Assembly (NCBI GenBank): GCA_001600815.1
Contig: BCKZ01000008.1
Span: 961,885 to 1,025,884, forward strand
DNA from: Alloascoidea hylecoeti
Taxonomy: Eukaryota
DNA length: 64,000 bases
Direction of reading: 5' to 3'
Positions 2,298 through 35,314 of the stretch are shown piece after piece. A program made the position numbers and the translations under genes. The notes beneath the pieces are model-generated. The model was given only the letters and a program-made list of their open reading frames with translations, was not told where the DNA came from and did no database searches. The number at the start of each line of letters is the position of its first letter. The first letter of the stretch is position 1.

Positions 2298-3034
2298 TTA
2301 TAATGCAACAGGAATTGATCTCTTTGGCTTTGTCCTTAAGAAATGTGAAGGACATTCAGTTTTTGTTGGATTCTTGAAAATATATAATTGATGATATTCT
2401 TCAGCATCCCAGAAATTTTCAATTGGTTCAAAGGCAGTTACAATTTCATCTTCTGGATAATATTTTAATTGAACTTTTTGTTTGATTATTTCAGCTCTTC
2501 GTTTTTGTTCTTCGGTATGGTAAAAAATTGCTGAACGATATTGAATTCCAACATCATGATCTTGACGATTTAATGTCGTAGGATCGTGTATTCGAAAAAA
2601 GAAATCGATCAATGTTTCAAATGTCACAAGTTCTGGATCATATACTAACTGTAATACTTCAGTATCTATATGGAAATAAATAGATTGTTAGATAAATAAG
2701 TTATCGTATTAGAAATATAAGAGTACTTACGTCCAGTTGTGTCAGTTTTGACATCTTTGTATGTAGGATTTAATGTTGTTCCATTAGCATAACCAACTCT
2801 AGCATCAATTAACCCTTTTCCATTAATTGCAAAAAACTTTCTATAAAGAGATTCAATACCCCAGAAACAGCCACCAGCAATTGTTATAACTTCATGTTCA
2901 GGAGCAACGGTAATAGATCTTGAAATAGTAAAATCCTGTGGGTTATTTAAATCAGGAAGAACATTAACCGTTATTATAGATTCCTGCAACTTTGGGTTTA
3001 CGTTTGTTATTGTATCTGGAGTTTCAACAGTCAT
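2298..3034 (-). CDS. MXR1: Peptide-methionine (S)-S-oxide reductase MsrA; 2 exons (3034-2731, 2665-2298), 223 aa
   Basis: GGCFWG catalytic motif, then HDPTTLNRQ..DVG.QYRSAIF and AEEYHQLY. The 65-nt GTAAGT...TAG intron (2730-2666) joins the two ORFs in frame, restoring TGHTEV. Confidence 0.93.
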
Positions 3035-3607
3035 TTTAACGATTTGTCAATTTTAGTGCAAAAAAAGGATAAAAAGTGTAAAATAGGAATATCACCTCTA
3101 TTTATATATCATGAGCTATTTAACTATAGAGTCCTCTCGGAATCTTTTTTTTTTTCCGTTATGCCAGTTTTGCGTTTTTACACGTGAATTCACCAATACA
3201 ATTAGACAGCTTGATGAGTCAGACTTGACTGGGATATTTAAATCCTCCAGCTCGAGAAAATATTTTTAATTATAAAGTTTATCAAAAAATATATTGCTTT
3301 TAGTTTAAATTATAGGATTTTTCCAATTAAATATGAGTATTGCAATTGAGTTTCAATTGATGGAGCGTTTCGTTGGACTTTTTACTTCACAGTCTTACTT
3401 ACCACAATACACTATAGCTATAGCGCTAGCTATAATGATGGTATCGACTTAACTAATTATTTATATCATGATCATTCTATTTGAATAAATCTGATCAAGT
3501 TCAATTGTAAAGGATATACCCAACGTCTAGTGGTGTCGTGTAATTGTCTAAAATAACCTTCAAATTAAATGATTTCTCATGATTTTATATTACCGTAGAT
3601 CGTCATA

Positions 3608-15596: not shown

Positions 15597-16599
15597 TTTT
15601 ACTCCCACAATCTATAACTTTTTCCCCTCAATATTTAGTTGGTTTAGAAAATTATTTTCTTATGCTGTATAATTAAGAAAATAAACAAATAATAATAAGT
15701 CCCCTTAGAGTACTTTTTGTAGTGGTTGAAGTTTTAGTTTAGCTAAAAAAGATGTTGAATAAACCAGACAAAAAATACACCCTTCTAAACAATTTAAGGT
15801 TGACTAAGAAATCTTACACAAAGTCGTTTAGAGCTACGATGATTGGTTGTTCACTTGAGGTAGGGTAACTATGGGTTACCCCGCCGTAGATTTTATAAAT
15901 AATTAAAGACAAGTAATTGTGTATATCCTGTTAGTAGCGTTTTTATTTCCCAATATTATAAACTTAGGAATCATTTTCATTCATATAATATGCATTTCAC
16001 GTCATTCAAGCTTAGGCCTTTTTAATCTGAAGGTGCATTTTTATAATTAGCCATTTAATATGTTTTATTTTTACTATTTTTACTATTATATTATACACGT
16101 ATGTAACAGCGGCGGTGTATTTACATATTTTTCGGAAGTTTCAAATGATATCATCTTTTTTTCCTGTTAATCATGATATCATATATAATAAAGATTGTTC
16201 TAAATTTGGATTCATTATTAAGTGTCAAATGATCGGTCAGGGAAAGTGCTCCTGATTAATTTTTTCTTTTTATTTATTTGATTCAATTATACAATTGCAA
16301 GCATTGTAGCTGGGCGAAGCCATCATCATCAATTGCATGAGCTTTACTTCTAATATATAGACGCGGTTATAGGGCTCATATAGCTATATTATATTGATCT
16401 TTATAATCAAAATTAGGATCAGTTATTGTTTGGGCTTAAGTATTAAATTGAATATAATAATGGTCAGCAATCTTAAGCCACAACTAACAATTTTGAATTC
16501 AAAAAACATTTCAGTATCATCATACATCGAAGAACTTATAATAAGGGGAAATTCTTAGATCAAGATGGCCCGAGCTCTATTAGGTTGGATCTAACCGCA

Positions 16600-18300
16600 A
16601 TTTAAATTGAATTACTAGGCCAATAACTATAGATGAGATTTGAGACAGATAAATGTGAGGGCGTCACCATCTCACTCAAAAGGGATTGTTCTTGGATAGT
16701 TCATCTTCCGTTTCTCTTCAACTATATTTAAATCTATGCAAATTATTCCTTGATCAATCTCTGTTCTACAAAGGGTAATTATCAGAAACTTGACAATTAG
16801 AAACTTAAATCAAGATTTCAGTTGAATGGTAAACGCCAAAAGTAGACGACTGAACTCATTTAACTACCAGTACCAATAGTTAATCGAGCTCTATCGAGGG
16901 GTAATTGTATTTTTATTAATAGTTAATATTACAAAAATATACTGATACATCCGACCCTGTTGGACTTTCAATTTTTCTGTATTCATTAACATGGCCAGTA
17001 TATTATTTTATACAATTGCATAATCATCACCTATAGCGGCATCCATAGTCATAGAATCTTTTAAGACTATATATATAGTGTTATGTAGGGTAACCTGTAA
17101 AACATGGTTTATATGTCAGAAATGTGTCTCTTGGCCGATATAATGAAATTTCAAAGTGCAAAGAACTTAAAGTTGATTAACTCCACTTTCAATTACGATT
17201 TATCGATATTAATCAGATAATTGTGATCCACTTTTTGTAAGAAAAATGTTAAATTATAAAAATCACATCTTATATATGGTAATCACATTTAATTTCGTAC
17301 AGTTTAATGTAAGATAAGCTTAAGTATAAGTTTAAATTTAGTTTCTTTTTTTAATATTTAAATTAACCATCCATCAATTTATTTATAATCAGTTGATTAA
17401 TTATATACGGGCCTTCTATAACACCATCCTTTACCACTTTAAAGCACAACCTTAACTATTGTGATCGCATTAAGATAAGGCACAACTTCTCCAACATAGG
17501 ATCCAACCAGGTTCAGAAAAACCTAGTTTTAATGACTGGTATAGACTGAGCGTTAATTTGATCAATTTTGAATCTATCGTTCTCAAAAGATTTTTCATCT
17601 AATTCAGTGAGGGTGTTTAGGAATACATATTCGGAAATTGTAAACCTGACATAACCATCTTAACAGGAGCAATAAGCCTAAGTTGTGAATCTGTGATTTG
17701 AAAAAGAAGGAAAAATATATCTGTATTAAAATATTTATTTGGATTTATAGGATTTGAGTTATTTACACATGGAGAATAAAGAACAGTCTACGATTTCATT
17801 TAAATATTCAATATCGCGAGATATCATCAAGATTTAAATTCGTGTTAATGACTTGAGTGTAGTATTATAATTTATATTTTCTCTTGACAATGAAATATAT
17901 TGGTCATAGTTGTCAACAATCTCAACGAGTTTAGTAATATATTCTTGAAATTCATTATGAGCATTTAAAATATTTTTAACTACCAATGTGGAGCGGGAAC
18001 TCAATTATAATTTATGTATTGATACTTACATTTTTATTGCTTACGATAATTTTAAACGGTTTACTAACTTCTTTATACTTTAAAACATTTAAATTAGCAT
18101 TTGGTCCAGTTTCCCGATATATCGATTCAAAAATTCCGAATTTTTTTTTTAATTTTACAGGTCCTATTCATGGACGAAGCCTTACGTTAGTAGACTTCTG
18201 GATAAATCCAGGACCCAGGCACACTAAAAAAAACCCCAGATATTTTCACCGTAAGCACTCTAGTCATGGCTTCTCAGCCAAGATGACAAATGTCTAATAG
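16600..18300 (-). other. Decayed endogenous viral element: SF1 helicase + RdRp of an alpha-like (+)ssRNA virus (Alsuviricetes-like); boundaries approximate
   Basis: Motifs in the correct order on the minus strand across stops and frameshifts: SVPGS (18225-18211), IGKLDQ (18118-18101), LSSRSTLVVKNILN, HNEFQ (17959-17945), QYISLSR (~17902-17882), IDKS* (17207-17193), CFTGYPT-NT (17104-17077), AAIGDD (GDD at 17031-17023) and VYFC (~16942-16931). Confidence 0.55.
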
Positions 18301-18387
18301 TCTTTATTTGGGTGTAATTCCCAAATCTTCTTGTCGCGCAGAACCTAAGTCGACGATTAAGAGTGGTTGTTAATTAGTACGCACCAC

Positions 18388-19380
18388 TTTTTTCATTTTT
18401 AACTTTTCATATATTTTCCGATTAAATTATATAACTAGAAATTATGTAAATTCCAAGGAAATCTCTACTATATATACTTGTAAATAGTGTAATAAAAACC
18501 TTTTTATCATTTCTTTTTATTTTTGTATATTCTTGACACACATCTTTCTTCTCTTCTTATGTACCTTTTTACCTAACAATTTACCTAGACCACCTCAAAA
18601 GTAATTATTTTTTCTTTTTTATTAGATTTTTTTACTTTTAAATTTTTAGATATTAGAATCCCCCAGTCAATCTCATTTAATATTTGTGGTGGTGTCTCTG
18701 AAAATCTAATGTTTTTTCTTAGCTCTAGTGCCTTTTTAATAAAAGCCCCATTTTTTTCTATATGGTTATCTTTTGTATTTATGATCAATAATTTGATCCC
18801 AATTCTATCGCTTCCTAACATCAACTTCTTTAGTATTCTTATGGTTGAGCAATCTTCAAATAGGTGTAATATGTCGTCTTTACCTTGTTGACATAAACTA
18901 CAAATATCAGATTTTTGCCACCATTGTTTTGCTTTTTTGTTATGATGTAGCATATGAGTAACATATCCCAAGCTGAGCAAATGTATCCATTGTGTCTCCT
19001 CAGGGTGTTCCTTATATGTTTCTTTGATAAATCCCCACCATTTCTTCCAATTTTCATTTGTTTGGTTTGAATATAATTTTGTTTCTATTATACCACTTCT
19101 GGCTTATTGATTTAATCGAGTATTTGGATATGTTTTCTTAGTCTTTTATTCTTTTTTCGATAGCTTCTCCTGCTGGGTTTTCCACTAGTTTTTGTAACGC
19201 TTCATTTGTCAATTTTGGTACCGTTTCCGTAGTTGGTATATTTCTTATTTTTGTGTTATTTATTATTATTCTCCACGCTTTCAAGTATATAATTAATCTT
19301 CCTTTAAACTTATTCGGATTTACTGGAAAGAGTACATGATTCCTGTAGATTCTCATGAAAGGTCGAAAACTTTGCAAAAC
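18388..19380 (-). mobile_element. 5'-truncated non-LTR (LINE/L1-like) retrotransposon relic: ORF2 C-terminus, 3' UTR and degenerate A-rich tail
   Basis: Reads NENWKKWWGFIKETYKEHPEETQWIHLLSLGYVTH...CSLCQQGKDDILHLFEDC (zf-RVT-type CCHC knuckle), with in-frame stops and a frameshift near 19060-19140. ORF stop at 18585. A-rich tract (T-rich on +) at 18388-18407. Confidence 0.8.
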
Positions 19381-19388
19381 AGTACAAA

Positions 19389-19471
19389 GGTAATCTGGCC
19401 GAGTTGGTCTAAGGCGTCAGGTTAAGGTCCTGATCTCTTCGGAGGCTAGGGTTCGAATCCCTAGGTTATCA
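19389..19471 (+). tRNA. tRNA-Leu(AAG), intronless
   Basis: Acceptor stem GGTAATC/GGTTATC-A, A-box TGGCCGAGTTGG, anticodon arm TCAGG-TTAAGGT-CCTGA, long variable arm, GTTCGAATCC T-loop, and a T6 terminator at 19476-19481. Confidence 0.95.
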
Positions 19472-21099
19472 TTAATTTTTTGTTAACTCACAAAATACTA
19501 TTGTCCACCCACCGGTCCTGTGCCGCAGCGGTTAAACCTCTAGATCTTGTATGTATCCATTTCAAATTGAAACCTACTGTTACCGTTTAGATATCATTAG
19601 ATCATATCACGATTGAAAAAATAAAAAAAAAAATTAAACTTTCTTCGATAGTGGGTATGTTGAAAAAAGTACGCTTACGTTTTTCGTCCATAATCGGAGT
19701 TCCCTCATGTTAACCCGATAAAGTGCGCGTTCCCAAAAATATTAGGAATAAAAATAAAACAAAATATTTCTCATCTACGCTCTTTTTACTAATATAAGCG
19801 ATTTTTACTTTTAAACAATTGTGGGCAAATCTATTTTTACAATATATATAGATAATACAGTGTATACTATAGCTATCCACTTTTAAGTATTCCCTAACTC
19901 TTTTATCCTTCTTCTTTGGTATACTCTCTGAGTTTATTTATTATTGCGATAAATAGAATTTACCTAAATTGATATGCACAATAGATCTGATAATAAAGAT
20001 AACAACAAGGTTGACGAGATTTATAAAGACCTTAGAACAACAAAGAACGAATCCGTTAAGGATGAAGCCATAAAGGATCACTCTGTTCAATTACTCTTTT
20101 GTTTCTACTATTATAATTAGATATTGTTTTGCTTATATAAACTCATCGGTAGCGCGACCTGTTGAAGACGGAATTCGAACCTGACTATGCACATATGCAT
20201 ATGCATAAGATTCACATACAGTTGAATGCATAGAATCGCAATAGTACATAGAAGAAAGTAGAGATCCATAGAATCGGCACATCGCCAATTAAGTAAGTTT
20301 TGGGGAATCCGTCAGCTTCATTATTTTGCTTCTTTGAAATTGTATTTTTTTGGTGCCGAAATACAACTATCATTATTTTCTGTCTTTATCTTAAGTCCGG
20401 TTACGTTGTATTCCGACCTCTAGGTTGTCTTGGCCGAGCTGGCAAGCGTAACTCAGGAATAGTGGTCTTTCCATCGTTGTGTTAATCGTGGCGTCTGGAA
20501 AAAAATTATTTTTAGGAATCCTACACATCACAATTTCAAAACAATACTAATGGGGATTTATCACTATGTGTACTTTGTGTTACCGTGTAAGTTTAAAAGG
20601 TAGATAGGAATTCACCCAATGCTCACTTTAACCTTAATGATTTAATTGAACTTATGTATTAACTTATAAGTAGATAAATAATAAAGAAAAAAATATAATC
20701 TATAAAATGAGAATACTCCCTTGTATTTATAATAAAATAATGAAATAATATCTTATTGATATTTATTTCCTAATATGAACATCCAGCTGCGTTCGTTTAC
20801 ATAAATACCTTCTAGCTGAGTTTGTTTACCAGTATGTAAATACCATCTTCAAGCTGTATTTGTTTATTATTATCGTGTTTTCTATTTGTTTTGATTGTTT
20901 ATATGAATGTAAGCTTTGTGTTGTAAATGAATATAAACTTCTTATTATAAGCAAAATATAAACTTCTAATTGTATTAGAATATAAGCTGTTATTATTAAT
21001 TATCATTTGGGACTGTGATAAATTCCCCGACCAGAAAAAGGTTACTTTCGAAAATTATATCATGGACAGTCGTTACAATCAACATGTGGTTGATATTGT

Positions 21100-23320
21100 A
21101 TTGAATTATATTTATGGAGCATGAAGGCTTCAAATATTAACAGATATAATTGGTACACAACAGTTCCAGTATCTGGCCTATATTTCAACCATTAGATATC
21201 TTATCCAATATTTTATATGGTATTGGATTCCATATTTGTAAAAACGAGTTTAATCATTCTTCATGAGTAATATAATTAATTGTCTTCTCTTATAGAAGTA
21301 AGCAATCGATGAGTATATGGATCTCTTGGTATAATATAAATTAATTGATAGTGACTTCCTCAGTAATATGATTAATGTTCTTCTCTTCTTAGGAGTAAAC
21401 AGTTAAAGATTCTTTCTTGGAATTCTGAGATAATATTATAAATTAATCTCTCATAGAAGTAATTGAGGAGTATATCGTCCTCTTGGTTTAATATAAATTA
21501 ATTGGTATGGACCTACTTTTAGTGAAGCAACAATTCAGTAATATATTGCAAACTCACATATCTGTAAATTACTGGCCAGTTAACTTTAGTAGGAGACCAT
21601 AGTTTATAATAAGAACGAAGAAAATAGTGATGGATTTCATCTGACTCTCAGTATCTTCATTAGTCATCGAGTGATAAATATTCCTCATTATTAACAACTA
21701 TCTACAGTGGTGATTTTATTGCAGGATTAGCTGTACTTGTAGCAGCTATTGTCTTAGTTTTGGATGTATCAGGCTCATTATGATGTTTGTCTCTATTGGC
21801 ATTCAATATCGTTTGTTATGAGTGTCCATTTGTTCATGTGGTATCTCATTAATATTGTTGTGCTTAGAGTAATGAGTGTCTGCTCTCAATTCCAGTATCT
21901 CATATATATCATTTTTGATTCTTCGGTTCTATGTAACGAAAAGAAGTTCTACTTGTATTTAATTTGAAATCACAATTTAATAAAGAATGTAATTTTTTAT
22001 TCAAATGATTACCTTTTACAAAATGTTTAGATTGTTTAAGTGAAAGTAATATTTTATGATTGTATATGATCTGTTGTCATTGCAATATATCTTTCTTATA
22101 AAAAATATTTTTTTAAAAATGTTCAATACCATCATAAAAATGTTTTACTGTTTTAAGAGCTTGTAATCTCTACTATTATAATTGATTTTTAGGAGATTGT
22201 AACTTTACTATTATTATTTCTTTTTAGGAGCTTATAACTCTACTTTTGTTTTAATGTCTATTAGACAACTTAATACCGTCTCTTGATCTGTTCCCGCCTA
22301 GGAGTTGAATAATCCTCTGGTTTTGGATAAGCAGATTTCTTTAATTCAGGTATTTGACCATGGAGCTTCTATCATTTCAAGTTTTTTTTCACAGCTCTCA
22401 AATAATTAGTAAAATTCCTTTTATGTATTTTAATTTGGAATCAAAATTTAATAAATAGATTGAAAAATTCGATTCAAACGATTATCTTTCAGGAAAAGCT
22501 TAGATGGTTTAAGTGTAAGTAATGTTTTGATTTGTTGTCACTTCAAAGTCTTTTGTACGAATAAATTTCAAAATGTTCAATCATAATCAAAGTGTTGTAT
22601 TGTTTTTAGGAGATTGTAACTCTACTATTGTTATAATTATTTCTTTACAGGTAATGTTAAGGCAATATTAGGATGCACAACACCAGTATTATTTGGTAAA
22701 GCATCTTGGTTCAGTAATACTTCCTCTTCTTGAACATGTTTTAAGACTTCTAATATTGTTTTTACTTATATTTTTAGTTTATCTTCTTTTATTGTGACCA
22801 AATTTCATAGATTTTTGGGGATGCTGACCACTATTTTTGTGACTAAATCTTTCCAAGCACTAACTATTTCATAAATAAATCTCATGATAAATTTGATTTG
22901 TCGTCGCACCACTTAAATATAAGTAACAAAAGGGTGAGGGTGAACTAACCATACTACAATAACTTTTCTGATAATGAAATAGACTGCAGATCATTTGTTT
23001 GTACCAACTCAATGACCGGTAATTGGAATAAGCAATAGTCCTTTTAACTCAGATACTCATGCTTAACTCTCACTCAAGTTAGGTGTAATGGTCAATCAAA
23101 GATATAATCTTGATATTTTCTAGTAAAAAGGGGTAGTTCGTTTATTAAAAGAATGATACGGTTCGACTTTATCAATAGCTGAGAAGAAAACGTGTGCAAA
23201 TGATGTTATTGTCAAACCTGATTCGATTATATCGTCTAAGTCGTTAGTACAGAGTGAACAGACTGGCGTCGCCATTTCAGCAGCTGATGAAAATGAGTCT
23301 CCTTTCACCTCTTAAATTGG
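21100..23320 (-). pseudogene. Decayed gene with N-terminal RING-like motif and internal repeats; boundaries approximate
   Basis: CSLC..DL...ITSFAHVFF...RTTPFY (23308-23120) resembles a C3HC4 RING with Cys-to-Phe/Tyr decay. Patches of coding-like frame broken by stops continue toward ~21100. Confidence 0.35.
22007..22640 (+). repeat. Diverged ~170-bp direct repeat (22007-22180 vs 22479-22640) plus ~30-bp subrepeats (TTTTAGGAG.TTGTAACT.TACTATT)
   Basis: Blocks TTAGAT.GTTTAAGTG.AAGTAAT, GTTGTCA and AAAATGTTCAAT recur in the same order. Subrepeats occur at ~22150-22250 and ~22603-22630. Confidence 0.65.
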
Positions 23321-23699
23321 TGTTGCCCGAAACAATCATTGTTGGGTGCGGCGACCGATGATACAGTCCCACTCTGGTTTTTATTTATTTACTTAACAAA
23401 TTAGTAGTTTCCAATGTTTTGAGCATTATAGATTAAAGTAAATATTAATAGAACTATATATACAACATTAACAAGATTATTATATAAATTCTTAAATGAT
23501 TATGGAGAATATTATTTGGGTGTTGGTGTAAATTCAGTTAAACCTTACCAGGCTATTCAAACCACTCAAATACAGAATTGGAAAATATCTGATAACATTA
23601 AAATCTCAATTAAAAATCTCAATTAAAGATCAAAAAGAGAAATCAAAAAGGAATTTAATAATCAAACAATTAGATACTTCAATATATTAAACATCCAAA

Positions 23700-24416
23700 A
23701 TAATCAATAATTCATATGCGATGACTTGTTTTCTGGTATTAGGATCCTCAACCATGTTCTATACGGAGAAGCAATGCCCCATTTCCAAAACTAAGCCTAC
23801 ACCTTATAAAGTCTTAGATACCTAGACTTATATTATAAATATTTTGAAATCCAAAGGCCTGGTGTGACTGCCGTCAAGGATATACTTTTCCAGATCAGAT
23901 TCCTATGTGACGACAGAACATTAGTAGTTGAATACCACACTATTCCTGAGACGGCTACAATCCATCTTTACATCTCATCCGTTTGTTCTTCAGATTCAGG
24001 AAAATCCATTCACATACCGAGAATATCATTTTATGTTTTTCACAGAAGATGGTCCTTGATATTCTAATGTTGGACTTTGAAGTCGAATCTCCAAACGAAC
24101 TCAAGGGAGAAACTTTTACAAGCCACAAACTTTGATCTATAGCTCTTTAAAAGTTATTTAGGCTCTTCTTATTAATCGGAAGTTTTGCAGTGGATGAGCT
24201 ATTTGTTTATACGGTGAACCGGGGTTATTCTCTCAGCAATTGAGAAGCCATTTTTATTCAAATTACATATATAAATCCGTTTAATTTATTGATAGTTATT
24301 TTTAAAAATATAATTACTTGAAATCTAGCTTAACTAGAAGAATCCTAGAAGTAATTTTACGTACATTTGGGAAAAAAGGGTTCAAAAATTGGTGTTCCAT
24401 TTTGTGTGCTATGCCT
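23700..24416 (-). mobile_element. Truncated Tc1/mariner relic related to the 46690-47936 element
   Basis: Shares TCAGCAATTGAGAAGCCAT and following sequence (24233-24380 vs 47736-47890) and CTGGTATTAGGA (23733 vs 47206). The end resembles a Tc1 TIR (rc CAGGCATAGCACACAAAATGGAACACC). Confidence 0.6.
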
Positions 24417-24472
24417 GGATACAACGGGGTTTAAAGTTTATTTCCGTTAAAACCATATTAGCGTTTATTTCC

Positions 24473-24733
24473 TTATAGCCAGCTTACATAAGCAGAGTAT
24501 ATTTTTGTTCTGTTGCAGAAGATCAAACCATATATAAATTTAATAATTACTCGGTTCCTACCTATTTTAAAAAAAGGTCTTCCAAAGGGCGAAAGATTCA
24601 CAATTAATTGACAAAAAATAATCAATTTTTTCTTCAAAATCGGCGAAAAGTCATGCATGTAAACACACAGATTACCTCTGAATGGCCCAATGTTAATTCC
24701 CCACCATATAACGAGCGAATAGCTAGTATTCAT
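24473..24733 (-). mobile_element. Second decayed Tc1-like DDE fragment
   Basis: LVIWWGINIGP..., VYMHDFSPIL and NLSPFG resemble Tc1 'VMVWG.I...GP', 'MQDNAPIH' and 'DLNPIE' with internal deletions. Confidence 0.35.
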
Positions 24734-25734
24734 GTAATTAGAATATTTTCTACTTAAGTATAATTTGTTAATTTTACTATTGGTTTATATTAAGATAAGC
24801 ACGTGCTCATGAATATTTTTATACGGAGATGATGAATGAATATTAATTGCATTATTTTATGATCTAGAAATAGACTAGATATAATCTAGATCATGTAAAT
24901 AATATTAAAAAAGTTCCCGGATTTGGTATATCGTTATTATCGACTAATTATAATTCGGCAAACTAATCTTTAAATCCTTCCTAGATATATCACATTGGTT
25001 ATGATGTAGTTATTCACAACTCTGCCTGGGATTGCTATAAGGAGATAAGGTCGAGACAATGTCTCGATAACAACTTAACAAGAATGATATCATGACAATT
25101 AAGCTGGTTTTGAAATATAAATCTTCCGCGGCCGGATTATGAGTCTAAAATTATAATTAATGGCGTTTATCTGAGAATCTGGGATTATAATTTTCGGCCA
25201 TTGATGCATAAGGTCATTTCTATATATAAGGACTATCTAGATCTCTACAATATCACTACTATCATTTACATTATCCGATTGCAATTCAAACTAGGCTATG
25301 TTTGGGGTTGTTAGCCAATGTTAGCACTATTTCGTCCTCCCTTTTCATCGATTCCAAACTTACTCTATTAATACCCTACCGGTTGGGATAAGAAAATTAA
25401 AATTAATTATAAAAAATTGAAAATTAAAGGTGATCATGATCATGAACAATTGAAATGATAATATAATAATTATTAATCAAGTTTTATAAAACATGATACG
25501 GTACTTATAATAGTAACTTCCAGAATCTTCAGACTTAATTACTTCGCCTCTTTATCAGATGTTAATCGGTATATAAAGTTTAATTATCCCACCATTACCT
25601 TTCTTACTTTTATTATTTTATCAAATATTTTCCTCTGTGTGTTCCTTACCACAAATCGCAACTCTTGATAAATAAAAAAAAATACAAAACACAAAATCCA
25701 ATTAAACAATACTACAAAGCTACAACAGATAAAA

Positions 25735-25911
25735 ATGCAATTCAAAAAGATCGTTATTGCCCTCGCTTCAGTTTCAGCAGTTTTCGCCGCAAATAATTCA
25801 TCAAATAATTCATCAAATAGTACAACTACAGCCGGAGCTCCAGGAAGTGTTGCTGTACCTGCTGGTATTGTTGGTGCTGCAGTCGCAGGTATCGTTGCTA
25901 TTCTCTTCTAG
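25735..25911 (+). CDS. 58-aa secreted, probably GPI-anchored small protein (YDR524C-B/YCL048W-A-like); missed by ORF track
   Basis: MQFKKIVIALASVSAVFAANNSSNNSSNSTTTAGAPGSVAVPAGIVGAAVAGIVAILF: signal peptide, N-glycosylation sequons and hydrophobic C-terminal GPI signal. A-rich start context and TATATAAA at ~25571. Confidence 0.85.
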   Translation: MQFKKIVIALASVSAVFAANNSSNNSSNSTTTAGAPGSVAVPAGIVGAAVAGIVAILF

Positions 25912-26296
25912 ACAAATTACTACTGGTCAATTGACTTTATTATAACAATGGGGTGTTTTTCCCTTATCTATGGATATATTAATGATATATGGTTGTGTTA
26001 GAAATGTTATTTAACTGCTTTCTATATTTAATTTACTTTAATTTAATTTAACTTCTCTCCTTAACAAATAGCTGGGTAAAAATTAGTGCACGTGCACTGT
26101 AGATCAGCCTACTTCTTTTAGGAATAGTTTCTGATATTCTACGTACGAGGACGAAAACCGAATAATAGAAGACAGCTTAGCTATGCATTGACTGACAAAA
26201 TTTGAGAGTTTGTCTTCATTGTAGAGTCAGTCTAGGTATGAATTTTAATCATAGGAGAGAGATTCCAAGACAAGGTAGGCGGCATCTTTGTAAACA

Positions 26297-27272
26297 ATGA
26301 AAAAAGAACGAGATTGTTATCGAAACCGTGAAACTGGATTATTTGCTCAACAAGAAGAACAGAAAGAAAAGGTAAGTGAATATAACTTATTATTTATATA
26401 AGTAAAATTGTTTTTGGTACTAATATTATTCATTGTATAAGGATGATTTTACTATATTTATATCCAAATAAGGGGATAGTGATGTTTTAAATTGTTGGTC
26501 AGGTATGGTTAGGACATTCAAAGATACCAACATTCCCTAGCACTATCCCAGTAAAAGTGAGATTCAAACTTTCTGGTACACTTTTTTACAACAATAGGAA
26601 TATTAAGGAATATAGAGGAATAGGACAAGTGGAAAGCAACTCATAAAGGATTTGATGGACATATTCAAAGTTGATTCCGGGTATCATTTTACAAAGAACT
26701 ACTATAAAGATGCCTGAGTTTTATTCAGCTGTTCAGATTCGAAAGAAATAAAAACAATAATTGCAGGTATGAGCCATTTTCTATGGTATTGAATGAATGA
26801 CCATGTTATTGATTTAGAAAAAGGATTATCATTTTCTAGGATAGCCTAATCGATTGTGAAGGAACGCTTACATTGCGATATATACGTTTTGTGGAAAATT
26901 TCGTTATCGATTATTATCATATTCATATTCATAAATACTCTTTTTCATAAATACTCTTTTTCAGATTGGCTTCCTCAGGCCTTAAAGGACAGAAATGAAG
27001 GTGAGGAGGTAAACCAAGAGCAGAATTTTGAATGTGTTCAGAATTTAGGAGATGAGATAATAGAGATGCCTATTGATAAAAATGTTAACGTTGGTGAAAC
27101 TTTGAATGACGGTGAAAATACTCACAATGTGATTCAAGAATTTCGTCGAGCTATATATTGTCTTGAACAGAATGGGAGATGCGAAAATATTATTAGATGG
27201 TTAAAGAGAGAACTTTTGGCTAGATTTTCTGGAAGGAATAGCGGTATGGGAGTTGAATATCCAAGAAACTAA
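26297..27272 (+). pseudogene. Intron-containing gene relic of unknown family
   Basis: ATG 26297, an intron-like GTAAGT...TACTAAT...AAG (26372-26441), then coding-like frames with in-frame stops. The last exon-like segment follows TTTTCAG at ~26964 and runs to the stop at 27272. Confidence 0.3.
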
Positions 27273-27638
27273 TGGTTACCGCAATTTGGGTTCTACTGCA
27301 ATACTGTAGTACTATCTTCATCTTTGTCTTCAAAATTCAATTTGGAATCAAACTCATTTCACATATCAATATAAATATCTCGTCTCGATCTTTCTTAATT
27401 CGATTTTTAACAGAAGGCTTAATGAGATATTTCAGAAAAATCCACCGTTTTAAGATATTGATGTATTATTATTATGGGATTTACAAAACCCCGAAAGAAA
27501 AAAAAATCATGCAAAACTTCCGGAGTATGAATTTTAGTCTTATAATCATACATTTGCATTGTGTTGTTTATCAACTATTCTTATAATCAAATTAATATGT
27601 ATTAAAGATTTACTTCTCTACATAATATATGTAAGTTA

Positions 27639-28760
27639 TCATTTAGTATCAGAAGGCCTAATAACTAATTTTTCATTAGATACTTTATCATCTTTAGATA
27701 ATAAATATCCAGCAATAATTGAATTAAATCCATTTGGAAGTACTTTAATTGGAATATGTTTAATTAATCCTTTATTGAGAGCATCAGCAACCATCGGTTT
27801 AATAATTTTAACAAATTCTGCAATTTCTGGATTAGAAACTTTTTTAACTCTTGACTGAAATGGATAAAAAGGATCACCAAATGAAAAATATGCATTTGTT
27901 TGTGTAATTTTAACATTTGATTTAAGGTTTTTAATATCTTTTGATTTAACTTCTAATAAATTATCCAATATAACAGGTTTTGTTGAAGAAACTGAATCAT
28001 GGGTTAATTTTATAGTATTTGGTAATGAAATTGTATCTAAAGCATAAACAATATTTTCACCACTAATTGATTTAATTTGTTCAACAACATCAATATCATG
28101 ATAATCAAAAATAAAATCAGCTCCTAAATTTTTTAATTCATCATGATTTTTTTTTGATGCAGTTGTAATAACTTTCCATCCAATTAATTTACCAAATTGA
28201 ATTGCAATTTGCCCTGTTGATGAAGAACCACCCCAAATTAATAAATATTTTTCAGATTCTTCTGGTTTTGATTTACTTAATCCAAATGTTCCTCCTAAAT
28301 TATGAAGTAAACTAATTATAATAGTTACTAAAGAAACTCCTAATGATGAAGCACCTTCAAAAGTAGTTGGAATACCTCTTGGAATATCATTAGATTCTGA
28401 TTTTTTTAAATTATTCAATTTAAAAAATGTTTGAGATTTAACTGCAGCATATTGTGCAAAAGATCCAGTATCTGGTCTAGCTTTATTTGAACCATATACA
28501 AAACCAATTCCAGTATCATCAACTGAGATATCAGTAACCTCAGACCCAATTTTTACTACAATACCAGCTAGATCACAACCTGCGATGGCATCAGGTACAG
28601 ATAAGCCAAAAAAGAGATGTTTCCAATCTGTTGAGTTAATTGCAGCAGCTTCGACTTTAACAAGGACTTCATTTGGTTTTATGGATGGGACTGGAACTTC
28701 CTTCATGATAAGGGAATCTGTTCCAGTGACAGCGGCTGTTTGTTGTGATGGAATTGGCAT
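27639..28760 (-). CDS. Zinc-type alcohol dehydrogenase-like / enoyl-reductase-like MDR protein (YNL134C/YCR102C family); ATG 28760
   Basis: EVLVKVEAAAINSTDWKH, GCDLAG.V, GSFAQYA, LIWGGSSSTGQ.AIQ and LGADFIFDYHD. Confidence 0.88.
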   Translation of the reverse strand: MPIPSQQTAAVTGTDSLIMKEVPVPSIKPNEVLVKVEAAAINSTDWKHLFFGLSVPDAIAGCDLAGIVVKIGSEVTDISVDDTGIGFVYGSNKARPDTGSFAQYAAVKSQTFFKLNNLKKSESNDIPRGIPTTFEGASSLGVSLVTIIISLLHNLGGTFGLSKSKPEESEKYLLIWGGSSSTGQIAIQFGKLIGWKVITTASKKNHDELKNLGADFIFDYHDIDVVEQIKSISGENIVYALDTISLPNTIKLTHDSVSSTKPVILDNLLEVKSKDIKNLKSNVKITQTNAYFSFGDPFYPFQSRVKKVSNPEIAEFVKIIKPMVADALNKGLIKHIPIKVLPNGFNSIIAGYLLSKDDKVSNEKLVIRPSDTK

Positions 28761-29792
28761 TTGATTTTCAATTGATGATAAATTTGAAAAGAACACATGG
28801 GGTTGAGCTTGGTCTTTTATACTGCACTGTTATAATAATATATGAAGATGGTGATAACTTTGATGGTGTTGATTATGATAATACCATAGAAACTTGCATT
28901 GCTTATTAATTATATTCGAAGAAAAAAAACCGATGTTAGCGAAGCTTGATCAACCAAGCGGAAAATTGCTTTCTTTACCATGCGGAATTAGCGGAACAGA
29001 TCACACAATTATAGCTTCTTCATAATTGTATGAATTTGGTGAAAGATTATTAATAAATGAATTTCACCTGAAATTTTAAATTCAAAGCTTAAGGAGGTTT
29101 TAAATGTAATACTTGTTTGAATAAACAGATCGGATTCTTAATCAATATTGATTATAAATCAGACAATATACAATAAACAAAATACACTATGAATAGTCCC
29201 TTAAACCTGCAGGTGTCGATTTCTCAATATTAATATTAATCGTTATTTAATTTTAAATTCGTAGAAATTTAATTATTATATATTAGTTGACTGGCGGTAC
29301 GTATTAAATTGGTAACATGTAGTTATTCTTTAGCTATAAACCCCAATATCTTGCATCCCCCCAAAAAAAGATAATTAGGAACATGCTCCAAAAGTTTTCA
29401 ATTCAAATAAAGAACTTTAATTGAGATCTCCCAATTCCATTAATTGTTCAGAAGGTTAAGAACGGAACGCAACTTCTTTTGTAACTCACATAATAGACCA
29501 ACCACAATTCCTTATGCTACCTACTAATATTTTTCAAGAATTGAACGAACCACGGGTTTCATATTACTTGCAGTTTAATTTACTGGCTTCCAGGGCACAA
29601 AAGATGTTGCAATTGCATATGGATGGTCTGCTTATTAAAATAAACCTAAGGACCCGACGTTAAATTTGGAGACCATATCGCACTATTTTGTTATTTAAAG
29701 AGCAGTCCAATAGAAATTAAGCGGCCCAATGCTCATGGAATTGATTTCTAGCTTAAAGCCGTATGATACTCGGTACAATAGTAAACTCGGCC

Positions 29793-29906
29793 ACGCGTAA
29801 AATACAGTACGGCTGCATCGAAAAATCGTCTTTTCTGATCTACTTTTTGCAGTATTAGGATACCCGGAAATATGAGTACAAAACTTACGGGATGGAGAAG
29901 ACGCGT
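29793..29906. promoter_or_regulatory. Two MCB elements (ACGCGT at 29793 and 29901) upstream of RFC2
   Basis: Exact MluI cell-cycle boxes 60-170 bp upstream of a DNA-replication gene in very AT-rich DNA. Confidence 0.65.
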
Positions 29907-29962
29907 CCTATTCTTCAATTGATTTCACCCTTTACTCTTAAATACAAACAATCCATATAAAA

Positions 29963-31215
29963 ATGTCAAATTTTTTCCAACCAAAAGGTGGTATCAATAT
30001 ATCCAAAAGAAAGGTAAAAGGCGCCAAAAAATTGGAACCTCGGGTTGTTCCATGGGTTGAAAAATAGTAAGTACTAAATATTAAAACTCTTGATCCTTAT
30101 ATTAACATGTATTTATTAGTCGTCCAAAAAATCTAAATGAAGTATCTGCACAAGATCATGCTGTTCAAGTATTAAGGAAGACTATTCTTAGTGAAAATCT
30201 ACCACATATGTTATTTTATGGTCCACCAGGAACAGGGAAAACATCAACAATTTTAGCATTAACACGAGAATTATATGGTCCAGAATTAATAAAATCTCGA
30301 GTTTTAGAATTAAATGCATCAGATGAACGTGGTATTTCAATAGTTCGAGAAAAAGTTAAAAATTTTGCAAAATTAACAGTATCAAAACCAACACCTGAAC
30401 AAAAATTAAAGTATTCTTGTCCACCATATAAAATCATTATATTAGATGAAGCTGATTCAATGACAAGTGATGCACAATCTGCATTACGTAGAACAATTGA
30501 AACTTATTCAAATATTACAAGATTTTGTTTGGTTTGTAATTATATAACAAGAATAATTGATCCATTAGCTTCAAGATGTTCAAAATTTAGATTTAAAAAA
30601 TTAGATGAATTAAATTCTTTAGAAAGATTAAAATTTATTGCAAATAATGAAAATTTATCATATAATGATAATGTATTAGAAACTATTTTAAAAGTTTCAA
30701 ATGGTGATTTAAGAAAAGCAATAACTTATTTACAATCTGCTGCAAGATTACATTTACAAAAAAATCCAAATACAAATGAATATGATGAAGATGGTGATTT
30801 AATAGTAAAAGATGTAAATATAGTTGATGATAAAAGTACAACAATTACAATTGAAAGTATACAAGAAATTGCAGGAATTATACCAGATCCAATTATAAAT
30901 CAATTATATTCATTAATTAACTCAAATCAATTTGAAAATAGCAACTCAATTTCAAGTTTAAAAATTTCAAATAATAAATTATATTTAAAATTAATTCAAT
31001 TAATTGATAATATTGTTTTATCTGGTTGGAGTGGTTCACAAATTATAAATCAAATTCATGATAAATTAATTTTAAATGATGAAATTAATTCAATTGATAA
31101 AAATAAAATTTCAAATATTTTATTAATAACTGATAAAAGATTAAGTGATGGATCTGATGAACATATTCAATTATTAAATTTATTTGCACAGTTGACAAAA
31201 ATTTTAAATAAATAA
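29963..31215 (+). CDS. RFC2: Replication factor C subunit 2; 2 exons (29963-30066, 30120-31215)
   Basis: Intron 30067-30119 (GTAAGT...TAG) restores PWVEKYRPK. Also GPPGTGKTST, LELNASDERG, PPYKIIILDEADSMT and SRC. Confidence 0.95.
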
Positions 31216-31260
31216 ATAGTAAAGTTCTAACTTTATTTCTAATTATATCTACATCTATAT

Positions 31261-31800
31261 CTATATTGTATAATCTTCCATTCTTGTAGCTTCAGTTAAT
31301 AAACTTAAAGCTTTCCTTAAACTCCAATCAATTTCATTATTATCTATATGTGATAAAACATTTAATTTTTTAGCTTCATTTATTCCATAACTAAATATTT
31401 ACATTGAATAAATAAATGTTAAATCAAAACACCATTCTGGTCCATCATTTAATTCAAATAAAATATCTTTATCATCATCATTATTAATATTTTTAATTAT
31501 CTTTTTAATCCAATATTCTTTTCCATAACATACAACTAATTTTGATAATTTAATAAGTGTAAATGTGATGATATATCTAATGTTGTAAGTATATAATAAA
31601 AATATGATATTATAAAAATATCTTCTTCTTTATTAAAAAAATTCATTTATTGATGGTTGATGAATGCCATCAAAACTACATAGTTCATGTAAACAATGCA
31701 CATCTAAATTTAATATTTCTTTTGTTAATTCATAACGATTATTAAGAGATTATTGTTTATTATCATTTAATGTTGGACCTTTCATTCTTATTATTTCTGG
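31261..31800 (-). pseudogene. GDA1: Pseudogene fragment of Golgi guanosine diphosphatase (C-terminal third)
   Basis: CSFDGIHQPS..F...DIFIISYFY, VCYGKEYW, ELNDGPEWCFDLTFI and EIDWSL..ALSLL, interrupted by stops and frameshifts. No N-terminal apyrase motifs nearby. Confidence 0.72.
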
Positions 31801-32245
31801 TTTCCTATTACCTATAAATTATGAGTGAAATGTGTCTAGATAACTTCGGGAGAGATATATGCTATTTATTTCGTTTAGAACTAGAAATATTAAGTTTATT
31901 ATTAATGAACTTTTCGGGGCTTAATATTCTAATGATAATTAGGAGGGAAGAATTTGACTCATTTTCCGTGAGTACATATACGTATACTCAATGTACTCAT
32001 ATTTTATACTGTAATGATAAGGGGCCTATACAACTGTTTATAGCTACATGTATGTAATGAGATGATATCTCCATTTAACCCCAGTTGAAATTTTGGATAC
32101 GCCACTGATCATACATATTTAGAGATTTTATAAGATAATAATGACTCATAATTAAATAATCATTCAACACATATATGTTCCAATATTCCTCCTTCAATGT
32201 ATTTCATAATATACCGGTATCCACAAAAGGGTAGACAAATGATTC

Positions 32246-34312
32246 ATGTCAAGGAAAAGGAATAGTAAAAGTTTAAGCTCAGGCATGAACGTGTTTGAAG
32301 AAGTTGATCAAGATTATTTACCTGATTGGTCCAGCTTGAGAATACGAAAGACCTCAGAAGAGTCTTCCAGATCTGTAAATATTTCAATCCCACAGTCAAA
32401 TTTAACTATAGAAAACGATGTCAATAACTCGAGGTCAACAACTGCTTCTACAACTTATGCTCAGTCAACCGTTAATGCAACTAATGTAATAGAAGAGGAT
32501 TATCATGAAGCTGCTCCCACAAAAAATTATATCTGGCAGAGAATTTTGCAGACATCCATCAAATTATGGGAGGACGAAGGAACTCCTAATAATATTCATG
32601 AAGATCTTCTGAAGGAGTATTCAATTGGAGAAATTGTTAAAGGTTCCTTTACTCTAACAAATACATCTGAAGAAGAAGTCCGTCTTTATGATTTTTTAGT
32701 CACATTGAATGGAACAGTTAGTGTTCAAAGAAAGAAACCAGATAGCTTTGGGTGTATAACTTCTAAACAAACATTCCTTTATCAAATAGATCATAAAGCA
32801 AGTAATTGGTTTGGTGATAGATCTCACACTTGTAATCAAAGTTCATTAAGTATTGATGAGAATGGCACTATAATTGGCTTACCAGATAGTGGAATTTTAA
32901 AACCAAAGATGAAATTTGTTATACCTTTTCAATTCAAGCTACCATATACTCTGTTAGAAGAACAAAATGAACTCAAATCACATTATTGTCAGATTCCACC
33001 TACTTTTGGAATAGATAAAGATATAATTGGGTATAAAGTAACAGATTGGAAAAGTGATTATCCAGAAATTAATATAGATTCAACTACTGGATATGCAAAA
33101 GTTCCACATCCTGCCAAACCACTTCTAGTTGTTAATGATAAGGCTCCAAAATATTGTTCTGTATCATATACCATTTCTATCAGAATTATTGGATATAATC
33201 ATTTTTCAAAAACTGAACCAGTAGAAATATTAAAAGAAATAAAGCAAAATATTAGAGTCATTTCGACCGGTTATCATTATGATTTTGAAGAAGAAAAGGC
33301 ACAAGACTCCAATTTGTTAGGAATAATAGAAAGGAATCGGAAAAATGTTAATCCTAGCTCCGGATCTAGATCTGGTGTATCTTCTAGTTGCAATTCCAGT
33401 TCGAAAGAAGCTAATATTTTATCAGATATAAACTTAAATACAACAGAAATCCCCAGTTCTTCATTAAACATACAAACTGAAGAAGTTCAAAAAAGTTATA
33501 AATTATCAAAGTATTCAGATAATACGATAAAATTTAATACTTGTATTGGATCTTTAGATTTAAAAGCTAAAGTTCCAAAAAGGGGGTTTCAATACGTTCC
33601 ACCAAAGTGTTTAAAAAAGCTAAACAAAAAAAAAAAATTAAAATCTCCTTTGCCAGGTATTCCTCCTCCTGATTATAATTCTATTCTTCTAGATCCCACG
33701 GATTTGATTCCATCCGACTTTAAAGAACTAAAGGATATTTTGATAACAGTTCAATATCATATGCATCATCCTAGGATTATACCAGTTATTTCACATGTCA
33801 TGACATATCTTAATGTCTTCACTTTTTTCAATAATCAAAGAAATCCGATACTTTTTAATACTGATATGGTCAATAATGGCCTATTATCACATCCAAATAT
33901 TGATGATATTGATGAGTTAAAAGAATTAGATTGGACTGTGTATAGGATACCTCTATGTAAGAAATCCAAATCTCGGAAAAACTTGGCTATAGGAGGTTCA
34001 TCATTGAAAAACTTTGTCTCTCTACTCTCTAACAAATCTACAGTTAATGATTATGAGGAAGACAATAGCATTATTTTATCTGATTGGAAGCTTGATTCAA
34101 AACATGATGATATTTGGGAAAAAGAGATAACAATGAAATTAGATTTCGTTGAATTGATGATAAAACAAAATATTTGCCTTGTACCTAGCTTCCATTCGTC
34201 ATTAATATCAAGAATATATGAGGTTGAATTTGAATTAGAGATGGAGGATCAAATAAAATCAGATTCAAAAATTTCTTTAAAAATACCTGTTCGTATCAGG
34301 AAGATGAATTGA
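32246..34312 (+). CDS. Bul1/Bul2-like Rsp5 adaptor (arrestin-like)
   Basis: LKEYSIGEIVKG..TLTN, FLYQID.KAS.W, IGLPD..ILKP, FQFKLP..LL, IPPTFG (Bul1 N-terminal domain) and LVPSFHSSLISRIY (C-terminal domain). PPDY PY motif. Confidence 0.8.
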   Translation: MSRKRNSKSLSSGMNVFEEVDQDYLPDWSSLRIRKTSEESSRSVNISIPQSNLTIENDVNNSRSTTASTTYAQSTVNATNVIEEDYHEAAPTKNYIWQRILQTSIKLWEDEGTPNNIHEDLLKEYSIGEIVKGSFTLTNTSEEEVRLYDFLVTLNGTVSVQRKKPDSFGCITSKQTFLYQIDHKASNWFGDRSHTCNQSSLSIDENGTIIGLPDSGILKPKMKFVIPFQFKLPYTLLEEQNELKSHYCQIPPTFGIDKDIIGYKVTDWKSDYPEINIDSTTGYAKVPHPAKPLLVVNDKAPKYCSVSYTISIRIIGYNHFSKTEPVEILKEIKQNIRVISTGYHYDFEEEKAQDSNLLGIIERNRKNVNPSSGSRSGVSSSCNSSSKEANILSDINLNTTEIPSSSLNIQTEEVQKSYKLSKYSDNTIKFNTCIGSLDLKAKVPKRGFQYVPPKCLKKLNKKKKLKSPLPGIPPPDYNSILLDPTDLIPSDFKELKDILITVQYHMHHPRIIPVISHVMTYLNVFTFFNNQRNPILFNTDMVNNGLLSHPNIDDIDELKELDWTVYRIPLCKKSKSRKNLAIGGSSLKNFVSLLSNKSTVNDYEEDNSIILSDWKLDSKHDDIWEKEITMKLDFVELMIKQNICLVPSFHSSLISRIYEVEFELEMEDQIKSDSKISLKIPVRIRKMN

Positions 34313-34416
34313 TTATAAATTGGGTTATACATATCTATTTCTAACTCTTTAATGATTCTTAGGTATCATATTTATAGAAGTAAAGTAGAAATATAATTTT
34401 ATTAAGAGATATGNAC

Positions 34417-35097
34417 TTTTTTTTTTTTTTTTTTTGAGGTGGTTATGGTTATGTATCTGCAATAGCCGGATCAGGTATAAAAAAAAAAGGTAAATGAAAT
34501 ATATTATTTTCACCTATTAATATTTCATTATAAACTAAGTAATTTACATTTATTTTTTTGGTATTATTATTCATTTACTTGATATTAATACTTAAGAGTA
34601 TGTCAGTTATTTTTCTGATCACATGTATTGGTTGTCGATTCTTTTCATATATCACTTTTTACCACAGTTAAAATTTCTTCATTTGTTGACTCCAATGTCA
34701 TTATCCCAAATCTTCTTCTGTTCCACATATTTATAATTGCTTCACCGATGTCATTTATTTGGATTAATTTTTTTGTGTTTATTGCCGTATCACAAATCAA
34801 TTCATTTAGCTAGTAATATTTTCTCATAAAATGTTGAAATATGATTTTTTTGGGTCTTGCAAGATTGAAGATGTGATCTTCAGCTTTTACGACTGGTTTG
34901 AGACGTACTATGGATTGTTCTCTGCTTCCATTTTCTTTGAAATTTGGTTAGTTTTTATCCTCCATATTGGATATTTGAGTCCGATGGGTGTAATTTCTCA
35001 AACTTAGTCTATGTAGGAAATGGACACTACCTGGTTTTTCTTTATTGATTTTTTGAAGAATCCCCCATCAGTTCTTCCATTCTGATTCATTTATTTT
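34417..35097 (-). mobile_element. Second 5'-truncated LINE relic of the same family as 18388-19380
   Basis: Reads EWKN*WGILQKINKEKPGSVHFLHRLSLRNYTH...EDHIFN...IGEAIINMWNRRRFG, aligning with NWKKWWGFIKETYKEHPEETQWIHLLSLGYVTH...ILHLFEDC. Stop at 34647-34645. A19 tail candidate at 34417-34435. Confidence 0.68.
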
Positions 35098-35149
35098 TTA
35101 AAAATAAAATTTCCACCCAAAATAAAAAGGTAACGAAATAGAAAAAATA

Positions 35150-35223
35150 TGATTTAACCCAGGATCGAACTGGGGACGTTCTGCGTGTTAAGCAGATGCC
35201 ATAACCAACTAGACCATCAAACC
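35150..35223 (-). tRNA. tRNA-Val(AAC), intronless
   Basis: rc GGTTTGATGGTCTAGTTGGTTATGGCATCTGCTTAACACGCAGAACGTCCCCAGTTCGATCCTGGGTTAAATCA folds as a cloverleaf with anticodon AAC, followed by a T6 terminator. Confidence 0.96.
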
Positions 35224-35314
35224 AATGCGTTGTGATAATGTAATTATTACCTAAGGTTTATGTAATGATATACATTTAAACCTCCTAATAATTGTCACCA
35301 ACTTCAACATTAAG

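Follow-up and report, generated by a model that had tools for sequence, protein, structure and literature searches.

Truncated L1-like LINE copies beside tRNA genes of the budding yeast Alloascoidea hylecoeti, a candidate case of tRNA-directed integration

Introduction

To target tRNA genes is a textbook safe-harbour strategy in compact genomes. Among long interspersed nuclear elements (LINEs) it is known only from social amoebae (PMC5911963), i.e. from the dictyostelid elements TRE5, TRE3 and NLTR-B, all of the L1 clade: TRE5 lies 40-54 bp upstream of a tRNA's mature sequence in opposite orientation (PMC5911963; PMC5006619), NLTR-B of Polysphondylium pallidum 39-64 bp upstream, and TRE3 40-150 bp downstream, co-oriented with the tRNA (PMC5911963). 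The 64,000-nucleotide stretch of Alloascoidea hylecoeti DNA analysed here (contig BCKZ01000008.1, forward strand; hereafter the window, in whose numbering all positions are given) holds two putative relics of an L1-like LINE, a retrotransposon without long terminal repeats (LTRs), and each of them lies beside one of the two tRNA genes of the window in a TRE5- or TRE3-like geometry. Integration directed to tRNA genes by an L1-like LINE family in this budding yeast is the explanation that we favour, with moderate confidence.

The second open reading frame (ORF2) of TRE5 comprises an apurinic/apyrimidinic endonuclease (APE), a reverse transcriptase (RT) and a zinc finger, the last of which is replaced by an RNase H domain in NLTR-B (PMC5911963; PMC5006619), and the ORF1 protein of TRE5-A binds TFIIIB subunits (PMC5911963). 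Within the accessible part of the same source, insertion downstream of tRNA genes is reported for dictyostelids only, and the yeast entries of its Table 1 are all LTR elements, which use integrase (PMC5911963). Two of these, Ty3 and Ty1, resemble the present relics in having tRNA gene flanks as a safe harbour, which is reached via TFIIIB by Ty3 and via RNA polymerase III (Pol III) subunits by Ty1 (PMC5911963). However, they possess LTRs and an integrase that inserts double-stranded cDNA, with no target-primed reverse transcription; their insertions fall at 1-4 bp from the start site for Ty3 and are spread over ~1 kb for Ty1.

The described LINEs of budding yeasts, Zorro3 of Candida albicans and Ylli of Yarrowia lipolytica, are likewise L1-type elements with poly(A) tails and many 5′-truncated copies (PMC7175516; PMC5014426; PMC3956500). 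Zorro3 integrates into poly(A) tracts without regional preference, and Zorro1 and Zorro2 are subtelomeric (PMC7175516; PMC3956500); for Ylli, truncation, poly(A) tails and no recognisable target-site duplications are described, and no tRNA preference is stated in the accessible text (PMC5014426). Compared by description only, the poly(A)-tract or subtelomeric sites of the three Zorro elements thus differ from the tRNA flanks occupied by the relics. The original prediction for this DNA, made from the sequence before any search, had held that tRNA targeting in yeasts was known for LTR elements and for no yeast LINE; Table 1 of PMC5911963, as far as accessible, agrees, and no report of a yeast LINE targeting tRNA genes was found in the literature searched, in which subscription journals were thinly covered and supplements excluded.

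Relics beside both tRNA genes of the window

Two tRNA genes, tRNA-Leu(AAG) and tRNA-Val(AAC), were identified in the 64-kb window with ARAGORN, and both were confirmed with Rfam, tRNA-Val being missed in the Rfam run over the whole window and recovered in a narrower search. No other Rfam family scored above threshold across the 64-kb window. The tRNA genes, the relics and the spacers between them are as follows.

19389-19471, plus strand: tRNA-Leu(AAG) gene, neighbour of relic 1 (ARAGORN; Rfam tRNA 49.7 bits), with a T-run after the gene on the plus strand
19329-19388, no strand: single-copy spacer of 60 bp from the 5′ end of tRNA-Leu to the 5′ junction of relic 1, by contig depth
18388-19328, minus strand: relic 1, putative 5′-truncated L1-like LINE copy (C-terminal part of ORF2, 3′ untranslated region (UTR) and A-rich tail), head-to-head with tRNA-Leu
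35149-35224, minus strand: tRNA-Val(AAC) gene, neighbour of relic 2 (ARAGORN; Rfam 50.4 bits, E 2e-9 in the narrower search)
35098-35148, minus strand: spacer downstream of tRNA-Val, read from the sequence; it contains T-run terminators and, directly preceding relic 2, a stretch rich in A; boundary uncertain
34417-35097, minus strand: relic 2, putative LINE copy from a diverged lineage, 5′-truncated and heavily decayed, with four in-frame stops, a conserved block at 34981-35088 and an A19 tail at 34417-34435

Two tRNA genes in 64 kb, each with a LINE relic beside it, had been predicted, and ARAGORN, Rfam and the relic searches all agree. The prediction that no further LINE-like relic is present was borne out as well: tblastn of 16 family proteins (including the full-length P0017 described below) against the window returned the relic 1 and relic 2 loci only, a hidden Markov model (HMM) of the family run over the six-frame translation returned the same two loci and no others, and none of 41 other stop-to-stop frames of at least 70 aa outside the large ORFs matched a retroelement Pfam family. 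No RT or APE was found in the window by tblastn with the family proteins, both copies being truncated before the RT. A weak tblastn match at 23171-23263 (E 0.25-0.9), considered as a third relic, was rejected as a chance CxxC match that the family HMM did not find.

The 5′ junction of relic 1 was located with Logan contigs of four public sequencing runs (X1, X3, X4 and X9), aligned to 18200-19600 at 80% likeness. In run X1, the summed depth drops from 636 in bin 19281-19327 to 62, the single-copy level, in bin 19328-19374; a loose end lies at 19328, and a contig of single-copy depth (record 7) spans 19237-19418 with 0 differences from the window. The fall in depth at 19328 places the junction ~60 bp from the mature 5′ end of tRNA-Leu, and not at ~12 bp, the distance to which the original prediction had traced the open reading frame without fixing the junction. 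That frame does exist, as a second minus-strand open frame (19141-19416) upstream of the 172-codon frame stays open into tRNA-Leu, but the homology between copies ends near 19328, and the element boundary was therefore moved. For X3 and X4, bin 19328-19374 in the spacer had almost no depth; depth holes prove nothing, and we draw no inference from these. The 5′ flank of relic 1 has no A-tract. Within relic 1, the following parts were distinguished.

19141-19328, minus strand: upstream ORF2 piece of ~63 codons, in a frame that differs from that of the 172-codon ORF; stop at 19138-19140; multi-copy depth
19055-19059, minus strand: site of a deletion of ~29 bp (frameshift) relative to other copies; loose-end letters in X1, X3 and X4
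18588-19103, minus strand: 172-codon open frame, putative ORF2 C-terminus; stop codon at 18585-18587; CX2CX8HX4C motif at 18849-18902
18388-18584, minus strand: 3′ UTR and A-rich tail, the tail being 18388-18400; loose ends at 18388 and 18396, where the flanks differ

The upstream piece is continuous with other copies via the protein fragment P0013 (tblastn 19134-19057), and it gave a weak colinear alignment to residues 992-1033 of P0017 (E 0.2). The loose-end letters at 19055/19059 encode the peptide WMQLIPELK, which is present in P0013 and P0015 and missing from the window; relic 1 has accordingly lost ~29 bp at this site, by which its frameshift is explained.

For relic 2, homology to the family begins between 35088 and 35100, beyond the T-run terminators and separated by 49-61 bp from the 3′ end of tRNA-Val (35150), which agrees with the predicted position ~50 bp downstream of the tRNA, past the T-run and co-oriented. 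Its 5′ flank is A-rich, with TAAAAAATAAA immediately before the element and T-runs adjoining.

The two relics have a 32-aa block in common (E 1e-4 by tblastx within the window, E 2e-6 by BLASTP), relic 2 aligned to the family profile in hhalign at E 6e-6, and a conserved W codon lies ~661 bp from the 3′ end in both (19049 to 18388, and 35079 to 34418). Their 3′ UTRs are unrelated. These comparisons support the view that relics 1 and 2 represent strongly diverged lineages, in line with the earlier description of a shared protein block in otherwise strongly diverged relics.

LINE identity of the family

When 1.84 billion representative proteins were searched in HMMER with the 172-aa frame of relic 1, 13 matches were obtained, of which 11 were kept, all fragments of 63-270 aa and 37-86% identical to that frame. 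The other two, P0010 and P0011, were dropped as repetitive proteins without a retroelement Pfam domain, and word-indexed searches added P0014-P0016, which brings the range of identity to 37-87%. A profile of 13 family members led to P0017, a protein of 1245 aa (E 1.8e-55), with RVT_1 at residues 496-750 (E 4e-33), zf-RVT at 1124-1167 and a weak Exo_endo_phos match at 15-222 (E 0.19). Among solved structures, human LINE-1 ORF2p chains rank as the best relatives of P0017 (E ~3e-37) and R2 proteins rank lower, and its Atlas look-alikes, taken as a lead only, show an Exo_endo_phos, RVT_1 and zf-RVT architecture.

P0017 provides an independent full-length ORF2 to which both relics can be compared. 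The 172-codon ORF aligned to its residues 1086-1184 with 25% identity over 99 aa (E 8e-10), and relic 2 to residues 1093-1125 (E 8e-6), i.e. both relics fall on the same position, the extreme C-terminus that bears zf-RVT. A CCHC zinc knuckle C-terminal in ORF2 and downstream of the RT is indicated by the CX2CX8HX4C motif together with the P0017 alignment. An A-rich or poly(A) 3′ tail is combined with variable 5′ truncation, as relic 1, relic 2 and the protein fragment P0004 have three different 5′ ends. From the homology to P0017, the A-tails and the equal distance from W codon to 3′ end, it follows that both relics would consist of a 5′-truncated ORF2 C-terminus, a 3′ UTR and a tail of an L1-like element. 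As judged from sequence homology, the evidence supports them as genuine pieces of a non-LTR (L1-like) element, drawn from the C-terminal part of its ORF2 and from its 3′ end.

The original prediction had been made dependent on a match of the relics to zf-RVT. The direct match is weak, the 172-aa frame reaching E 1.4e-3 and 19.6 bits, and its falling under the 27.5-bit cut-off of the Pfam family speaks against it; the homology of both relics to the zf-RVT-bearing C-terminus of P0017 speaks for it. The family profile had 0 matches at E ≤10 in PDB. No relative was found in metagenome_contigs with the 172-aa protein or with a degenerate pattern of the CSLCQQGKDDI region, in viral_contigs with P0017 or the window ORF, or in genome_contigs with the degenerate motif pattern.

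Copies of the family at other loci

In runs X1, X3 and X4, 167-169 contig pieces per run aligned to the relic 1 region, and 141 of the 167 in X1 were less than 99% alike. The summed depth in X1 was 1000-3200 over the ORF part and ~55-60 over the flanks; as summed depth is not a copy number, this indicates many diverged copies and gives no count. Run X9 is from another organism, and its 18 pieces, all on the tRNA, were not counted as absence of the element. The family is multi-copy and variably 5′-truncated in its host yeast.

One further 5′ junction was recovered from the protein fragment P0004 (159 aa), which derives from a different contig. Its homology to the element starts only at residue 95/96, a truncation point different from that of relic 1. 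When back-translated and reverse-complemented, the N-terminal part is compatible with a tRNA in four features jointly, i.e. a B box matching GGTTCRANNCC, an A-box-like motif located 55 nt upstream of it, a T stem of 5 bp, and 7/7 acceptor pairs. The A and B box motifs used here are general consensus sequences. This four-feature test was passed by 1 of 5000 shuffles of the same peptide. The 5′ end of the putative tRNA precedes the last base of the W96 codon by 62 nt, which leaves a spacer of ~56-59 nt in head-to-head arrangement, and since spacer and tRNA both differ from those of the window, P0004 represents an independent locus. Two looser cloverleaf scores of P0004 were rejected as too permissive, the first with an observed value of 27, equal to the top of 60 shuffles, and the second with 25.4 vs a maximum of 24.0 in 40 shuffles and with an implausible layout.

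At the opposite end of relic 1, the last ~90 bp (18388-18481) show a summed depth ~190-400 times the single-copy level. Joints that go back along the sequence were observed from 18569 to 18396 (with 22 nt between) and from 18449 to 18399, which suggests that very short tails are arrayed head-to-tail at other loci. The high depth of 18388-18481 could also come from a SINE-like (short interspersed nuclear element) partner sharing the tail, or be an AT-rich or organelle artefact.

Relic 1 is situated in a 12-kb stretch (15600-27640) without any ORF of at least 150 aa, in which the G+C content is ordinary (27-33%) and internal repeats are small and few. Its 3′ end is abutted by another sequence.

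18200-18387, no strand: low-copy repeat abutting the 3′ end of relic 1, context outside the LINE, with a depth of 3-6 times single copy

The depth of this repeat holds in X1, X3 and X4, and at other loci it is linked, inverted, to LINE pieces, with joints from 18228 to 18404 and from 18228 to 18868. No Pfam or Rfam match was obtained for it; it may represent a solo LTR or some other element associated with tRNA genes. In X3 and X4 only, a contig of single-copy depth joins 18339 to 19396 and skips relic 1, the spacer and the first tRNA bases. This joint, of which the shorter side has only 23 letters, could reflect an insert-free allele or a paralogue.

Distance and orientation relative to the tRNA genes

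Three copies show their 5′ flank, namely relic 1, relic 2 and P0004, and all of them lie 49-61 bp from a tRNA end; in the other 14 protein fragments no flank is visible. Both upstream copies are head-to-head with the tRNA and the single downstream copy is co-oriented with it, the numbers being small. Relic 1 (60 bp) and P0004 (~56-59 nt) are thus similar to TRE5 (TRE5-A, formerly DRE, of Dictyostelium discoideum), at a slightly larger distance than TRE5 and NLTR-B and in a budding yeast instead of an amoebozoan. Relic 2, with its position 49-61 bp downstream, its co-orientation and its A19 tail, is similar to TRE3 (TRE3-A, formerly Tdd-3, of D. discoideum), from which it differs in being a single copy and in that TRE3 uses an external B box. 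To our knowledge, an external B box is not known in yeasts. The likeness of the yeast family to TRE5 and NLTR-B is one of geometry; a further difference is that the yeast family has no known ORF1, modular UTRs or TFIIIB interaction. A TRE5-like geometry upstream and a TRE3-like geometry downstream had been recognised in the original prediction, and the distances and orientations given in the accessible part of PMC5911963 agree with it.

For random placement, ~31,900 window positions outside large ORFs, tRNA genes and relics were taken as available. The probability of a random site falling at most 61 bp from a tRNA end is 0.0078, and for both relics to do so 6e-5 (1.5e-4 with a limit of 100 bp). 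If the 12-kb stretch around relic 1 simply tolerated insertions, a position 60 bp from a tRNA gene would not be explained. Both the LINE identity and the TRE5/TRE3-like geometry are genuine and unlikely to be due to chance, in agreement with the third junction.

Proposed directed integration and competing explanations

The main competitor of tRNA-directed integration is a passive association, in which an ordinary L1-like LINE would nick accessible, A/T-rich, nucleosome-free DNA or poly(A) tracts, and tRNA flanks would simply offer such DNA. Integration of Zorro3 into poly(A) tracts (PMC7175516; PMC3956500) provides a precedent, and the TAAAAAATAAA flank of relic 2, with its neighbouring T-runs, would suit this mode in a genome of 31% G+C; a Zorro3-like preference could by itself explain relic 2. 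Yet A/T tracts occur throughout the ~32 kb of non-ORF DNA, and all three junctions are nevertheless 50-60 bp from a tRNA end. Furthermore, the two upstream cases share distance and orientation although their spacers are unrelated, and A-tracts are lacking from the flank of relic 1. We consider passive association unlikely, while giving it real weight.

A second possibility is that insertion was random, and that copies beside tRNA genes either persisted because they are harmless there or are a coincidence in a sample of two or three. The sample is indeed small, and relic 1, beside another repeat in a stretch free of large ORFs, suggests a tolerant region; selection for harmless sites would, however, allow copies anywhere in the 12 kb and not specifically at 60 bp from the tRNA, two random hits have the low probability calculated above, and P0004 repeats the geometry independently. 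Chance or survivorship accordingly appears improbable.

Chimeric retrocopies, in which the RT would switch from LINE RNA to a tRNA transcript (as for U6-L1) and the tRNAs would be parts of the inserts and not targets, fit the order of tRNA, truncated LINE and poly(A) in one orientation at relic 2 and the template switching of Zorro3 in S. cerevisiae (PMC7175516), but are very improbable, as ~50 bp of spacer with genomic T-run terminators separate tRNA-Val from relic 2, relic 1 and P0004 are opposite to their tRNAs, which template switching cannot yield, and both tRNA-Leu and tRNA-Val score as intact genes. That the relics are no retroelements at all, and come from a decayed host zinc-finger gene family or from chance similarity, would account for zf-RVT matches below cut-off, a window without RT or APE and a family profile without PDB match, and is dismissed as highly implausible, given the homology of both relics to one position in a protein with RVT_1 and zf-RVT, the A-tails, and the many diverged copies with different 5′ ends.

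Several observations nevertheless count against tRNA-directed integration by a LINE or weaken the case for it. At the level of identity, zf-RVT matches at E ≤0.1 were obtained for 4 of 13 family members, all below the curated cut-off; neither a full-length copy nor ORF1, APE and RT of the family itself were recovered, and P0017 is a distant relative (25% identity to the 172-codon ORF over 99 aa). Neither relic showed a convincing target-site duplication when its flanks were judged by eye; the copies are old, and recognisable duplications are lacking from Ylli as well (PMC5014426). As regards the junctions, there are only three, and the downstream preference is a matter of one copy (relic 2). 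The boundary of relic 1 is given by contig depth in 47-bp bins, in which depth is not a copy number, and that of P0004 by a tRNA derived from a protein through degenerate back-translation, with a test designed after the pattern had been noticed; the two earlier, looser cloverleaf scores barely separated P0004 from shuffles. Finally, with a further repeat adjoining relic 1, it may simply be that transposable elements accumulate in tRNA flanks.

Proposed mechanism and its implications

Under tRNA-directed integration, the relics would be dead, 5′-truncated copies of an L1-like non-LTR retrotransposon, for which an ORF2 with APE endonuclease, RT and CCHC zinc knuckle is to be expected. Target-primed reverse transcription is established for APE-type LINEs. 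The copies would have been made in this way, with a nick in the target priming cDNA synthesis from the A-tail and the synthesis often stopping early, and at relic 1 this nick would be located on the plus strand, ~60 bp upstream of tRNA-Leu. The transcription start of tRNA genes is placed ~10-12 bp upstream of where the mature tRNA begins (PMC5911963; PMC5006619). With this offset, the site of relic 1 is ~45-50 bp upstream of the start. Such a position would correspond to the upstream border of the region that TFIIIB binds, comparable to TRE5-A. The insertion complex could owe its placement to the Pol III machinery (TFIIIB and/or TFIIIC) at tRNA genes, the Pol III complex presumably being read by a protein of the element. 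Lineages of the relic 1 type would insert with the 5′ end facing the tRNA gene, as TRE5, and the relic 2 lineage ~50-60 bp downstream in the orientation of the tRNA gene, as TRE3.

In its extended form, the proposal is that a budding-yeast LINE lineage evolved Pol III-directed, orientation-specific integration independently, with one sub-lineage inserting ~55-60 bp upstream head-to-head and the other ~50-60 bp downstream co-oriented, and with repeated hits building the tail arrays; this we put forward tentatively, as somewhat short of an even chance. Active targeting, a host factor and a split into upstream and downstream lineages would be parts of it that go beyond the observed positions. Two subfamilies of a Pol III-targeting LINE had also been suggested in the original prediction, of which the LINE identity, the diverged lineages and the geometry were upheld, and the downstream preference of one subfamily rests on a single copy.

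If this extended proposal is true, the family would be the first fungal LINE targeting tRNA genes and the first downstream-targeting retroelement outside dictyostelids, and a large share of the tRNA genes of the host yeast would carry such relics. A yeast LINE of TRE5/TRE3-like geometry would add a further independent origin of the safe-harbour strategy and imply that the Pol III machinery can steer target-primed reverse transcription in fungi. The strong genetics of yeasts could then reveal the host factor (TFIIIB, TFIIIC or Pol III) together with the targeting protein of the element, and a possible route to programmable insertion at safe sites would be opened.

Gene content of the window

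The genome has a G+C content of 31%. ORFs of at least 150 aa cover ~44% of the window, which is low for a budding yeast. The gene content is consistent with an ascomycete yeast, including Bul1_N/Bul1_C (32246-34312), YDR124W-like, Iml2, Cut8, WSC, COX4 and a subunit of RFC. Next to tRNA-Val, a MutS-family gene (35315-38018) is broken by stops and frameshifts into at least five pieces, with the domains MutS_III at 35882-36514 and MutS_V at 37275-37580 and 37806-38018, and it is either a pseudogene or affected by indels of the assembly. The gene for methionine sulfoxide reductase (PMSR, 2301-3046) is divided between two overlapping frames, which points to a frameshift and not to an intron.

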